Shown here in pieces: positions 2,688 through 44,432 of a DNA stretch of 64,000 bases. The stretch lies in NCBI GenBank assembly GCA_001662655.1, contig KV460215.1. One strand, given 5' to 3'. The notes under the pieces were generated by a model. That model had not been told where the DNA came from. It did not search any database and saw only the letters and a program-made list of their open reading frames with translations. This DNA is from Pseudogymnoascus verrucosus. Lineage: Eukaryota. Numbering within the stretch: the first letter of the stretch is position 1; the number at the start of each line of letters is the position of its first letter. The position numbers and the translations under genes were made by a program.

Positions 2688-3713
2688 TGGCCCACCAACA
2701 CGCCCCAATATAAGAAACAAAGACTCTTACTGTATCTTTGCAATGTAAGAAGTATCTGAACGAATGATTGCCCTCGTATGGATATGATATCAATGGCTGA
2801 CGCGTGAGACGGGTAGACTCTCGACATGTCCAATCGCAAACTTCACATCAGTTTATCCATCGAAAGAGATACGAATCCGCGGAGAAACACGATAAGAAAT
2901 AGTTATAAATACGATAAGAGAAAGCCAGGCTTAACACCTATCGACGAAGAATAAGAGGGAGAAGTTCAACCAACAGTCTCGAATCTTGACCAAGAAACGC
3001 GTATACGGCATAGCATTGGACATAGCCTGATCAAACCTGACGGGCGCAGAGGATGAAATAAAGTGTTCCATACAAACACAGCCAGCTAGCTTTTTTGCCA
3101 AGTTATGGTAGTCAGATCAGGCGCGGCCATTGCTGACAGATATTATAGGCTCCAGTGTTGCCAAGGAGTCATATAGCTAGGTTGGCGATGATGATGATGT
3201 GTCATTTTGGGCCCTGACAACTCTGATACATCTGAATCCACCGGAGTTTGGACGTGAACCGTACTGGTTGACTGCATGAACTGTATCTTTAGAAACCCAG
3301 TCGGGGTATATTTTCAGGGCCAATCTTACAAAGCAGTCGCTGAGTGGTTTAGAGTGCAGATATGATTGGGTGGTCTCATGTCGCCCTAGCCATGGGCTTA
3401 CTGCACTCCACATTATCGGGGTACGGTGAAAGACAAACCTCCGTTCCGACGCCCACGTACAGTCCGAAGCGCGCGTCTGACTGTTTTTTCTAACTTCTAT
3501 ATTGAGTATAGGCAGAACTTTGCTCACGTCACTCTTTAGCCCTCGTTATTGAAGTTAATTTAGAAATGAACTTCTCCCGCACTCATTTTTGACTCATTGC
3601 AGTGATATTCCTCTGTTAAAGCTTCCAGTTCTTCCACAGAGCATTGGGATTCATTTGACATCCACAGTCGCTTCTATCCATATTTGACCCTTACCCTCCA
3701 CGAATCCACGACA

Positions 3714-40612: not shown

Positions 40613-41321
40613 TGGGCGCGGGGGGGGGTGGTTTTATGAATACCCGTGATGATGAGGTTATGCTTGTGATATGATGGTTAGAAATGGGAGTGGGCTTGGG
40701 TGGGATGGGGGGTGGGATAGATGGATGGGGTTGGGTTTGGCGTCGGCAGGGGGGTTATGGGCGTCGAGGGCATTTTAGCCATGTGTGTTGACGGATTCGC
40801 ATTGTTGGGGCACTCTTCCACCCCCCGTTTTTTTTGTTATGTTGGATTGGGAATGGGGAGACCTTGGTGCGCTTTTTAGAGATAGGAGGGATGGGATGAG
40901 GTAGATGGGAAATGAAGAATTGAGACATGAGGAAAGTAGACAATGAAGAACTTAGCGGCTTGTTTGTTTGATCTTGATCTTGTTATAAGCATATATGCTG
41001 CGGTTTATAATGGAGCGTGACCGTGACAATCGTAGATCTCGGGTGTGCTATTCCAGGCAAAAACAACACAACACATACCGTCAAACTACGCTATAAAACT
41101 ACGCCATAAAAACCGTACGTGGATGTTTAAGAAAGGTTTATTGTGTATGTAGGTAATTTCTTATATGACCAATCTCGCACATCCAACCCCCCTCCATCCC
41201 GTACCCCCCACCCCTAATTCATTTCCCAAACGTATATCGCTGGTACGGTCTATCTCTAAACTCATCGAACGATTCTATATATACACTCTCACTGTCGTCC
41301 CCGGAATGGCATCAAGCCACT

Positions 41322-42677
41322 TTACATCTTATCGAGGACCGCGCGGGTGAACTCGTTCGTGGTGCTGTTACCGCCCATGTCGCGGGTGCGGACTTGTCTA
41401 AGCACAGAGTTAGCAAGAGTGTGGTAAATAGGAAGGGGAAGGGTGAAACATACCCTGCAGCAATAACATCGTACACAGCCTTGGAGATGCGGTTGGCGTG
41501 CTCATCAAGACCAAGGTGTCTCAGCATCATGGCGCCGGAGAGCAACATGGCAGTTGGGTTAGCCTGGTCCTTGCCCTTGATATCAAGACCGACGTGACGG
41601 CATCCGGGCTCGAAGACAGCGACATCACGACCCATGTTGCAACCGGGAACGATACCGGGGCCACCGACGAGGGCAGCGCCGACGTTGGACAAAATGCCTC
41701 CGTAAAGGTTGGGCATGACCATGACGTCGAACTGCTGTGGGCGGGAGACACACTGCATGGAAGCGTTGTCGACGATCATGTCGCTGGACTCGAGGGTGGG
41801 GAACTCCTTGGCGACGGCGTTGAAGGTGTTGCGGAACAGTCCGTCGGCAAGCTTCATGATGTTGGCCTTGTGGATACAGGTGACCTTCTTGCGGTTGTTT
41901 GCGAGGGCGAAGCTGAAAGCAAACTTGGCGATGCGCTCAGACTTGGCGCGGGTGATGATCTTGAGCGACTCCACGACGCCGGGGACGGACTGGTGCTCCA
42001 GGCCGGAGTACTCGCCCTCGGTGTTCTCGCGGATGATGGCGAAGTCGACGTTCTTGTGGCGGGTCTCGTAGCCGGGGATGTTCTTGATCAGGACGACCGA
42101 GGCGTAGATGTCGAGCTCCTGGCGGAGAGCGACGTTGAAGGACTGGTGGCCGGAGCGTTCGACGGGGGTGTGGAGAATGCCCTTGAGGCCGATCTTGTTG
42201 CGCTTCAGGGAGGCGATGGACTCGCGGAAGAGCTCCTCGGAGTGCTTTCTTCCGGACTCGAGACCGGAGACATCGACTTGCTCCCACTCAATGGGGACGT
42301 TGTCGGCCTTGAAGACGGTCTTCACGGATTCTGTGATCTCGGCTCCGATACCATCACCTGGGATGAGGGTAACTGTGTATTTGGAGCCATACTTGGTAGG
42401 CTGGCGGAGTGAATTGGTAAGCAAGTGGCCTCTTGACGACGTAGGGATCGAGTTCTAGTACCTTGAAGATATCACTCTGCACGCTTGCGAAAGACCTGCG
42501 GATCTCAGCAGAGGTGCTCGACGACGCGGAAGTGGCGTTCCTCACAAGGCCCTGATAAGAGACGAAACGTTAGCCACAGAAGTTGATTTGCGCGATTTTC
42601 ACGCCATTGCCAATGGTTGAAGGGCAGAAATCAGAATTGCTTACTTGCGCCGAGCGAGCAGAGCTTCGGGACAGCAT
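41322..42677 (-). CDS. IDH1: NAD-dependent isocitrate dehydrogenase, regulatory subunit 1
   Basis: VTLIPGDGIG, RENTEGEY, PNLYG, and EPGCRHVGLDIKG (IDH1-type). Multi-exon with a presequence. Confidence 0.95.
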
Positions 42678-43377
42678 GTCGCAGGTGGTAGAAAGAGGGT
42701 TTGGGTAGGAATGTTGAACTGGCAATCTCTTGCTCCGGATGACCGCGTGAAAAGTAGTTACAGCCTTGGATATCCCGCAGTCGCTTAGTAGTTGGAGAAA
42801 TCGTCACGTGTTGGGGTTGGCGCCTGTCAAGAACAACGTAAACTCATTGGCGTAAAATTCTTGGCGATGGCAACGTTCCTTTCGTCCATTTTTAGAGGCA
42901 ATCCACATTTTTCACGAGAAATATGATAAGAGTGGGAAAAGTGGGAGTAAAACATATAAATAATAAGCAATTTAAACTTTCACACCAAGGTAAGCTTATT
43001 TATTTGTTTATGTCACAATAATCGCAAATCACAATTATCATTTTCAATTCAAGAAGAAAAAAGCAATAGAGCCAAGCAGGTCAATTATAGACTTCAATCT
43101 ATATACATGGCTCTTTGATAACAGACTTGTGCTACCCCAATATTAGCAACAATTTTACTACAAGTTAAACCAATAATGAGCGTTCTCTTGCGAGGGCACC
43201 CATATAAAATAAAGCCAGCCACTTTTTATTTTGAGGTGTTGGGCCGACATGCACACACTCCCTCAATTAAGCACCAGAAGCCTGGCGCCGCGGATGATGG
43301 AGCTGGCGAAAGAAATAAAACGACCTGCGTACGAAACTGCAAAAATATATCCGTAGATTTACGGTATGAGTGGAAGA

Positions 43378-43630
43378 TCAAGCTCCAATGGGCACGCATC
43401 TGGGATCGGTTTGGTGACAGTCGTAAGGCTCGTCTGCATGACAGGCCATGAGGCAAGTCAGATACCTAAAATGAATCCATGGCCGCGTATCGGTGGGAGG
43501 AGTAGTGGTTGGTGTGGCGACTGGGGTAGTAGTAGTAGTGCGAGCAGTAGTAGTGGGAGTAGTAGTAGTTGGAGTAGTAGTAGCGGGGGGGCGATAAGGC
43601 CGATTAATTCCCTGAAAATCCCGTTTTCCC
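43378..43630 (-). CDS. Putative alternative terminal exon of ppg1 (GKR, Thr-rich tract, 4-Cys peptide)
   Basis: Donor GTAAGT at 43689 overlaps the stop codon; TACTAAC branch point; CAG acceptor at 43631. The spliced product is in frame. Confidence 0.5.
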
Positions 43631-43685
43631 CTGAGAAGACAGTTAGTATCAGCCAATGCACAGAGGAACATGGTAAGCTTACAAC

Positions 43686-44432
43686 TTACAAGCTCGCAAG
43701 AGCCTCTGCAGCAGCCTCGGCAAGGGCATTCGCCTCACGCTTAGCCTTGCCGCATGGCTGACCGGGGCGCCAGCAGATAGCTTCGGCAGCGGCCTCAGCA
43801 TCACGCTTAGCTTTGCCACATGGCTGGCCAGGACGCCAGCAGATGGGCTCGGGGGCGGCCTCGGCGAGAGCAGATGCAATAGCCTCAGCGGCGCGCTTAA
43901 CTTTGCCACATGGCTGGCCAGGGCGCCAGCAGATAGCCTCGGCCTCGCGCTTGAGTTTCTCGTCAACGGGCTCAGCTACAGTTATGTCAGCATTGGTCTC
44001 CTTGGAAGATATAGGGGAAGGGGTGAACATACCCTCGGCAACGGCCTCTGGCTCTGGGAACGCCTCACGGATGGCGAGCTTATCGAAGAATGCCCCAGCC
44101 TCGGGATTGGCATTGGCAACGGCATGAGCGAGCGCCAAAGCAGCGCGCTTGGCTTTGCCGCACGGCTGGCCTGGACGCCAGCAGATGGCAGCAGCTTCGG
44201 CCTCGGCCTCGGCCTCACGCTTGACCTTGCCGCATGGCTGACCTGGACGCCAGCAGATTGGCTCGGCAATGGGCTCAGCGATGGCTTCGGCGAAGGCCTC
44301 GGCGGCGCGCTTGACTTTGCCGCAGGGCTGGCCGGGGCGCCAGCAGATTGGCTCGGGCTCGGCGACGGCGATGGCGGCGGAGTTGGCGCCCACCACGAGG
44401 ATGGCGAGGCAGAGGTTGGCGAGATACTTCAT
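43686..44432 (-). CDS. ppg1: Alpha-factor-like mating pheromone precursor with six copies of ICWRPGQPC(G)
   Basis: Signal peptide, X-Ala/X-Pro Ste13 spacers and Kex2 KR sites. Intron 44032-43976. Confidence 0.95.
   Translation of the reverse strand: MKYLANLCLAILVVGANSAAIAVAEPEPICWRPGQPCGKVKRAAEAFAEAIAEPIAEPICWRPGQPCGKVKREAEAEAEAAAICWRPGQPCGKAKRAALALAHAVANANPEAGAFFDKLAIREAFPEPEAVAEGMFTPSPISSKETNADITVAEPVDEKLKREAEAICWRPGQPCGKVKRAAEAIASALAEAAPEPICWRPGQPCGKAKRDAEAAAEAICWRPGQPCGKAKREANALAEAAAEALASL

Follow-up and report, generated by a model that had tools for sequence, protein, structure and literature searches.

In a 64,000-nucleotide stretch of contig KV460215.1 of Pseudogymnoascus verrucosus (assembly GCA_001662655.1; hereafter the window), the minus-strand gene with a canonical coding span of 44432-43686 is the alpha-type pheromone precursor ppg1, of the ppg1/ccg-4 family, and its stop codon lies within a consensus splice donor. 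Splicing from this donor would delete the stop and append in frame a further exon, whose predicted product starts with a candidate Kex2 processing site and continues through a Thr/Pro-rich linker into a small Cys-containing head. On comparative grounds we consider it likely that this exon 3 is translated, giving a 312-amino acid (aa) form of the precursor beside the canonical 229-aa form. The pheromone gene itself is already known; what is unusual here is the appended module and its way of attachment.

A stop codon located within a predicted splice donor

On the minus strand, to which all features described below belong, ppg1 ends ...GCG AGC TTG TAA, with the TAA (43686..43688) that terminates the canonical 229-aa precursor sitting within the first of two tandem donors (donor 1, GTAAGT, 43684..43689). 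Use of this donor would end the exon after the TT at 43690 and remove the stop while keeping the frame, thereby defining a phase-2 intron of 59 nucleotides (nt), intron 2 (43631..43689). The second donor (donor 2, GTAAGC, 43677..43682), located 7 nt 3' of the first, retains the TAA and would yield a 52-nt intron lying in the 3' untranslated region (UTR). Both share an acceptor CAG ending at 43631 and a branch-point consensus TACTAAC (43642..43648), whose branch A is 12 nt before the acceptor G. The next exon begins with G at 43630, so that TT+G rebuilds the Leu codon, and scripted joining of the three exons gave a frame of 939 nt whose only stop is its last codon, encoding 312 aa as against 229 aa for the form ending at the TAA. 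The initial annotation of this region, made from the sequence alone, had proposed tandem donors at 43689 and 43682 with a single acceptor at 43631 and a TACTAAC branch point, all of which we recovered at those positions. It had further held that the downstream donor keeps the stop and that the upstream one reads in frame into L-G-K-R, ending in a Kex2 site used elsewhere in the precursor; indeed, GTAAGC at 43682 is 3' of the TAA at 43688-43686, the rebuilt Leu is followed by GKR-DFQGINRP... in a frame that is open to a TGA, and KR is found after all six pheromone repeats.

Fungal introns have been recognized by a GT donor, a YAG acceptor with a CTRAY branch 9-25 nt ahead of it, and a typical fungal length, as set out in the available text of PMC4408805. 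Intron 2 displays the sequence signals of this definition both in the window (59 nt, with CAG) and in an orthologous locus, L001, discussed below (79 nt, with TAG), the branch being at 12 nt in both. According to the same source, even splice signals that arise by chance are used in Neurospora, and genes are depleted of spurious ones (Collins et al. 2015, PMC4408805). By extrapolation from that fungus, one would expect the consensus donor, branch and acceptor of intron 2 to be spliced. Counts of the donor hexamers across the window fail to tell real donors from background (GTAAGT 18 versus 20.2 expected; GTAAGC 19 versus 24.1) and were not used as a measure of donor strength. Among four sequencing runs (X1-X4), of which only X1, a soil metatranscriptome (share 0.08), is recorded as RNA, no contig of X1, X2 or X4 extends over 43627-43740, which says nothing about splicing. 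Pile-ups from these three runs on 43513-43626 were discarded, as they are short, mostly below 95% identity and loose at both ends, and represent (ACT)n-like repeats of other organisms.

Layout and composition of the predicted tail

The coding part of exon 3 (43378..43630) completes the Leu codon and continues for 83 codons to a TGA at 43380-43378. It opens with Gly-Lys-Arg (43621..43629), which places a candidate Kex2 site at its very beginning; 80 residues then follow before the TGA. The Thr/Pro-rich linker (43492..43584) has a 15-nt period corresponding to TTTTP units, with zero indels among the copies, and leads into the Cys-containing head (43381..43479), which has the pattern C-x3-C-x7-C-x6-C and is predicted to form a small three-stranded beta sheet. 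In the AlphaFold2 (AF2) model of the tail, built from a 4-row alignment, the mean predicted local distance difference test score (pLDDT) is 55.5, with a disordered linker and a three-stranded sheet at residues 51-73; 10-residue blocks across residues 41-80 have mean pLDDT values of 61-78. By eye the tail has no hydrophobic C-terminus, hence neither a glycosylphosphatidylinositol (GPI) anchor nor a membrane span is suggested.

The tail frame remains open in 265 of 5000 dinucleotide shuffles of the window sequence. Within the head, 4 of 40 codons encode Cys in this frame against 1 and 1 in the other two, an excess that is equaled in 651 of 20000 shuffles. An AATAAA of putative function is present at 43225..43230, about 148 nt past the tail TGA and about 456 nt past the TAA. 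Between it and the tail stop there is a 57-nt block (43258-43314) which is kept, with 7 differences, in an 89%-identical DNA relative although the tail itself is unalignable there; this block may be a conserved 3' UTR element.

The tail in other Pseudogymnoascus gene models

Four of the five NCBI Pseudogymnoascus ppg1 models examined run past the junction into a tail, namely those of VKM F-4515 (P0005), VKM F-4517 (P0133), P. destructans (P0006) and VKM F-4281 (P0007). The tail of the window aligns with those of P. destructans and VKM F-4281. In the former case a BLASTP alignment (E=3e-7) has 18 of 45 positions identical with one 9-aa gap, and both proteins end ...CV..A-stop; the N-terminal blocks of the two tails also align (QGINRPYRPPATTT versus QNSKRIFRPPHYTT, respectively), a score reached by 13 of 2000 shuffles, and sit on the far side of a Thr tract in which the two tails differ by about 21 residues. 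The C-terminal and N-terminal alignments together imply that three blocks have been held in one frame across two in-frame indels. In the latter case all four Cys align without a gap and the C-x3-C-x7-C-x6-C spacing is kept, with none of 2000 shuffles reaching the score.

Across the five lineages compared, that is including L001, the number of Cys in the tail is always even (4, 8, 2, 2 and 4), and every tail has an early dibasic site. GKR is also present in the models of VKM F-4515 and VKM F-4517, and KR in that of P. destructans; in L001 the site is KK, and in VKM F-4281 RK/RR occurs further in. A protein predicted by an open reading frame (ORF) caller from the 90% cluster of the VKM F-4515 model (P0134) ends ...AIASL, whereas the spliced model reads ...AIASF-DGGKRE, and the two ends fit the same TT|G donor.

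Comparison with an orthologous locus and other DNA relatives

A metagenome scan, in which 284 stretches matched, returned three loci (L001-L003). L001 is an orthologous, syntenic locus, with 76% DNA identity over ppg1 and 84% over the downstream isocitrate dehydrogenase-type gene (Iso_dh); L002 and L003 are unrelated loci and were set aside as non-orthologous. In L001, ppg1 ends ...AGT TTG TAA, with a GTAAGT at 3252-3257 and a second GTAAGT at 3259-3264, followed by GGCTAAC 12 nt before the acceptor and an ATAG ending at 3330. Apart from the TTG-TAA, the donors, the branch and the acceptor, the introns of the window and L001 have diverged.

Downstream of this acceptor, L001 has 129 open codons in the phase set by donor 1, and this frame stays open in only 59 of 5000 dinucleotide shuffles. 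Its product has an S/T/P-rich linker, encoded by five to six units of 24 nt that show 0% indels, followed by a head in which 8 of 48 codons specify Cys. The other two frames have 2 each, and 22 of 20000 shuffles reach the count of 8. The open frame does not extend upstream of the acceptor, and its first in-frame ATG comes no earlier than about residue 100; lacking an early start, it would be translatable only as a continuation of ppg1 and not as a separate gene. The recurrence of the arrangement in the syntenic L001 locus, together with the small number of dinucleotide shuffles that keep the tail frame open, argues that it is beyond chance. No paralogues of the tail were found within the window or L001.

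The L001 tail contains the sequence FCRWPAGRCG (L001:3575-3610), which has the C-x6-C-G spacing and several residues of the pheromone core ICWRPGQPCG, and the last Cys pair is also C-x6-C in the heads of the window (43396-43419), P. destructans and VKM F-4281. Going by this resemblance, the head may have descended from a degenerate pheromone repeat.

Run X3, compared over window positions 43000-44254, contains two versions of the locus, a contiguous one of about 98% identity (record 12) and one of about 89% identity in the coding sequence (record 13); they may come from two species, or be two copies within a sample. For the 98%-identical relative, the differences listed in exon 3 include no indel, and 4 of the 6 substitutions listed there read as synonymous, which is a weak signal. 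In record 13 the differences listed in the coding sequence are all at third codon positions; the 363 nt of 43315-43677 are exchanged there for 384 other letters, 21 more, before similarity resumes at 43258-43314.

Searches for a family or fold

The tail was compared with sequence and structure collections by several routes. Pfam has zero families on the window tail, and the L001 tail gave only a sub-threshold, unrelated match; in particular, Pfam detects no hydrophobin domain after the repeats, as would be expected of a precursor of the Ustilago Hum3 type. For the known Cys-rich families (CBM1, CFEM, hevein, knottins and others) the searches run gave no usable profile or fold match. Word-indexed searches with the 40-aa head in the 'near' and 'longer' modes returned zero candidates, and an exhaustive HMMER search of 1.84 billion representatives gave 2 matches, both to unrelated repeat proteins. 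No usable match to the tail was obtained in the ESM Atlas, nor anything usable in Rfam. A PDB sequence search returned none for the window tail and 4 for the L001 tail, all with E>=0.15. A Foldseek search of the PDB with the AF2 tail model recovered nothing at E<=0.001, the best rows being pacifastin-type mini-inhibitors (E=2.2).

Alternative interpretations

The first alternative, the donor switch of the initial annotation, refines, rather than excludes, the favored reading of an intron spanning the stop. It holds that both tandem donors are used to a meaningful extent, with the ratio of donor 1 use (pheromones with the tail) to donor 2 use or intron retention (pheromones without it) being regulated, for example by mating stage. 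GTAAGT at 43689 and GTAAGC at 43682 are both competent by sequence and, with their one common acceptor, form a candidate alternative 5' splice site pair; each string is common at the 5' splice sites of Neurospora, and rough string counts in two supplements of PMC4408805 place GTAAGC at about one third the frequency of GTAAGT (1031 versus 3205 and 1737 versus 6165). The second GTAAG is kept in L001 at the same +8 offset though the adjoining intron bases differ, and the alignments of the window with X3 record 13 and with L001 (blastn) both pass through it before ending at 43678. The tendency of fungi to purge spurious splice signals, described in the available text of PMC4408805, would also favor a functional second donor. 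The retention of these five bases has a chance probability of about 0.03, given that 22 of 39 (56%) third codon positions are identical, in what is a post hoc test on two to three lineages. Of the two sites in the window, donor 1 is closer to the consensus, and the second donor is unnecessary for the short form, as intron retention yields the same protein. The RNA around the donors (43665-43695, 31 nt) can fold into a hairpin of 7 base pairs and -7.7 kcal/mol, a stability matched by 2 of 200 shuffles, in which donor 1 base-pairs with the 3' portion of donor 2 and the bases that follow it, GTAAGCTTAC being a palindrome. This hairpin is absent from L001 and was rejected as a conserved switch; no conserved RNA switch is thus visible. 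We regard regulated use of both donors as possible though doubtful.

The second alternative is that the region is an ordinary 3' UTR, wherein the intron is retained or cut at donor 2, translation always ends at the TAA, and the open frame is a by-product of a Thr-codon microsatellite combined with predictors that tend to extend frames. A number of observations would fit this and weigh against translation of exon 3. The tail shows no codon-usage signal, its log-likelihood ratio per codon being -0.05 in frame, no better than that of frame +1, as compared to +0.45 for exon 1 and +0.40 for exon 2, and its GC content at third codon positions is 0.40 as against 0.76 and 0.61 in those exons. None of the three frames has a stop within the (ACT)n tract, and the length of the open frame is inflated as a result. 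The tails of the window and L001 cannot be aligned as DNA despite the 76-84% identity of the flanking genes, and diverge as fast as non-coding DNA. The heads of these two loci likewise lack significant similarity (1917 of 2000 shuffles score as high), and the same applies to the heads of the window and VKM F-4515 (1234 of 2000 shuffles as high; BLASTP against P0005, E=0.9). The tails of the NCBI models are computer predictions that need an open frame, and as such are not independent proof of translation, while the fifth model, from the P. pannorum-type strain VKM F-3775 (P0014), skips the tail and fuses the 3' half of ppg1 to Iso_dh. The only published manual model of P. verrucosus ppg1 stops at the TAA, as does that of P. 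pannorum (Wilson et al. 2023, PMC10569646), and the available text of that study retains the tailed NCBI model for P. destructans with no comment on the difference. Four NCBI models from other Leotiomycetes (two of Diplocarpon and one each of Mollisia and Acephala) end in Leu-stop and are tailless. Finally, the head is without a family, fold or homologue in the searches run.

Against the 3' UTR interpretation stand the common frame and stop position that the tails of the window and P. destructans keep despite two in-frame indels, the conservation of all four Cys with VKM F-4281, the frame-specific excess and even counts of Cys, the 129 open codons and indel-free 24-nt period of L001, and the presence of a perfect upstream donor in both loci that were read as DNA (the window and L001). 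We accordingly rate it as unlikely. The coding exon posited by the initial annotation is hence favored by its right-phase open frames, in-frame indels, shared stop and Cys bias, and finds no backing in codon usage. Similarly, of the conservation that the annotation had proposed to check, the frame is kept within the genus and the Cys spacing with VKM F-4281, GKR or KR occurs in three of the five lineages (the window, VKM F-4515/4517 and P. destructans), and the heads of L001 and VKM F-4515 show no significant similarity to that of the window.

That exon 3 is a separate small gene, starting at an in-frame ATG inside the intron and giving MFLCALADTNCLLRGKR..., appears extremely improbable, for although the window frame (43378-43734) does contain that ATG, and behind it a mildly hydrophobic segment and KR, the L001 frame starts only at the acceptor, ORF callers predict no such protein in a collection of 15 billion proteins, and an ATG 27 nt past the ppg1 stop leaves no room for a promoter.

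The ppg1 gene and its neighborhood

The alpha-type precursors surveyed in the available text of PMC10569646 are defined by a tandem peptide of 9-14 aa, KEX1/2 sites (KR/RR/KK) after the peptide and STE13 sites (XA/XP) before it. The window gene encodes six tandem repeats of the form ICWRPGQPCGK(V/A)KR with intervening Ala/Glu/Pro spacers, and has KR after 6 of 6 repeats and the dipeptides EP, AA or EA before them. Its N-terminus (MKYLANLCLAILVVGANSAA) is hydrophobic by eye and resembles a signal peptide. Among 8000 scored candidates, 152 proteins match at E<=0.001, including named pheromone and ccg-4 precursors, and the best named matches are Pseudogymnoascus pheromone proteins, such as the P. 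destructans 'Pheromone' VC83_06943 (ELR03405.1, E=2e-82). Without intron 1, the encoded protein matches P_verrucosus_ppg1 in S9 File of PMC10569646 at every position, and S3 Table of that study lists the same repeat for P. verrucosus with a copy number of six. In P. destructans, ppg1 (GMDG_06142.1) was found to be expressed in MAT1-1 strains only, in a report whose available text does not discuss the gene structure (Palmer et al. 2014, PMC4169168). RNA-seq reads were generated as an aid to the VC83 annotation in general (Palmer et al. 2018, PMC5750222), and a P. destructans transcriptome paper (PMC5810475) leaves the pheromone unmentioned.

Exon 1 (44033..44432) runs from the ATG at 44432-44430 through the signal-peptide-like N-terminus and three of the repeats. 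Intron 1 (43976..44032; 57 nt, GTATGT...GCTGAC...TAG) is absent from the published model; its length is a multiple of three and it has no in-frame stop, so that prokaryote-style ORF callers run through it (P0002, P0003 and others). Exon 2 (43690..43975) carries three further repeats and the spacer ...EANALAEAAAEALAS, and its last bases are the TT of the interrupted Leu codon. Intron 1 is treated as coding in the NCBI model of VKM F-4517 (P0133, 307 aa) and is removed in that of VKM F-4515 (P0005, 288 aa). One X1 contig ends exactly at 44033, the end of exon 1, with 10 letters unaligned, a weak hint of intron 1 splicing in a relative.

The repeats themselves turn over within the genus: in one related lineage, known from Logan ORF calls (P0004 and P0132), a Tyr-rich insert ...YDTSIWYYPPGDYHC... 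replaces the second repeat, and one repeat reads CWRPCQPCA. Downstream of ppg1 on the same strand lies the Iso_dh gene (41315-42803). VC83_06943, a pheromone protein at NCBI, is labeled 'isocitrate dehydrogenase' (FPKM, fragments per kilobase per million, 8.04) in a 2025 study (PMC12505510), a conflict which is probably due to a mix-up between the adjoining genes.

A model for the origin and processing of a probable extended precursor

In the reading that we favor, an ancestral Leu-stop end (TTG TAA) would have become the 5' splice site TT|GTAAGT, and splicing of the short, consensus-quality 59-nt intron would delete the stop and join exon 3 in frame. The simplest reading of the distribution of tails is that the TTG-TAA followed by GT was turned into a donor in the Pseudogymnoascus lineage, with downstream sequence being recruited as an exon. 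The tail is probably a feature of this lineage, and one that evolves very fast. Exon 3 would encode the GKR site, a linker that is probably O-glycosylated and a module of about 35 aa with four Cys, making the main product a 312-aa bipartite pre-pro-protein. Its presumptive cleavage by Kex2 in the secretory pathway would release six pheromone peptides and one Cys-rich glycopeptide of about 80 aa. Intron retention or use of donor 2 would lead to the TAA end and hence to the canonical 229-aa precursor.

The rapid divergence of the tail, with its frame and composition preserved, suggests that it may act either as a carrier or pro-domain that depends on composition, or as a fast-evolving reproductive ligand. 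The initial annotation had suggested that it might serve as an adhesin, a tether or a second ligand. A more elaborate version of the latter kind, which we put forward as a long shot, is that the tail is a hypervariable disulfide-bonded glycopeptide under mating-type control, delivered from the same mRNA as the near-invariant pheromone and acting in species recognition or in tethering and adhesion, its dose being set by the tandem donors and intron retention. If true, this would bear on a puzzle raised in the available text of PMC10569646, namely how related Leotiomycetes tell mates apart when their alpha-factor repeats are identical.

Should the long form be real, the published ppg1 models of P. 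verrucosus and P. pannorum would be truncated; as matters stand the literature is inconsistent, with a tailed model for P. destructans and tailless ones for these two species. In this genus, which includes the bat white-nose fungus, the alpha-pheromone precursors would then be the source of a further secreted product that evolves rapidly and is controlled by mating type. It would likewise be a clean case of a new C-terminal exon arising from a stop codon turned splice donor, and the tandem donor would offer a simple, testable way to ask whether the choice of splice site lets fungi adjust the mixture of peptides they secrete.

Relationship to known systems

In its main part, the predicted protein resembles the Ppg1, Ccg-4 and MF-alpha precursors of ascomycetes, including the published ppg1 products of P. 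verrucosus and P. destructans, in having a signal-peptide-like N-terminus and tandem C-x6-C peptides with a PG/GQ turn, preceded by XA/XP and followed by KR. It differs from the ascomycete alpha-type precursors of the searched literature in its non-repeat Cys-rich C-terminal module and in the stop codon situated within a splice donor. No searched text on ppg1 of Pseudogymnoascus or P. destructans, or on C-terminal extensions of pheromone precursors, describes such a tail. The statement of the initial annotation that no equivalent had been described therefore holds for discussion in those texts, and needs amending in that the tail is already present in four NCBI Pseudogymnoascus models and one published supplementary sequence.

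Several secreted fungal proteins carry a small disulfide-containing domain behind a Ser/Thr-rich linker, as exemplified by CBM1. The ppg1 tail has a comparable layout, with a Thr/Ser/Pro-rich linker and then, at the very end of the protein, a four-Cys domain of about 35 aa, and is set apart from CBM1-type tails by its lack of a Pfam match to CBM1 or any other family. A closer parallel in overall plan is provided by Hum3 of Ustilago maydis, in which Kex2-separated repeats are followed by a hydrophobin domain, according to the available text of PMC4617103. Both would be bipartite secreted pre-pro-proteins with Kex2-processed repeats first and a Cys-rich domain at the C-terminus; Hum3, in contrast, is a basidiomycete protein with amphipathic, repellent-like repeats in place of pheromones and a hydrophobin domain, and its fusion is independent of splicing out a stop.

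With respect to the mode of attachment, the relevant precedents are certain cytosolic enzymes of fungi, which acquire cryptic C-terminal extensions through alternative splicing or stop readthrough (Freitag et al. 2012, as cited in the available text of PMC4207609). Those extensions are short peroxisomal targeting signals, unlike the 83-aa module of ppg1, which is predicted to be secreted and lies behind a protease site. What the proposed ppg1 forms would have in common with them is that a single gene gives rise to a short and a C-terminally extended protein by bypassing the first stop at the RNA level.

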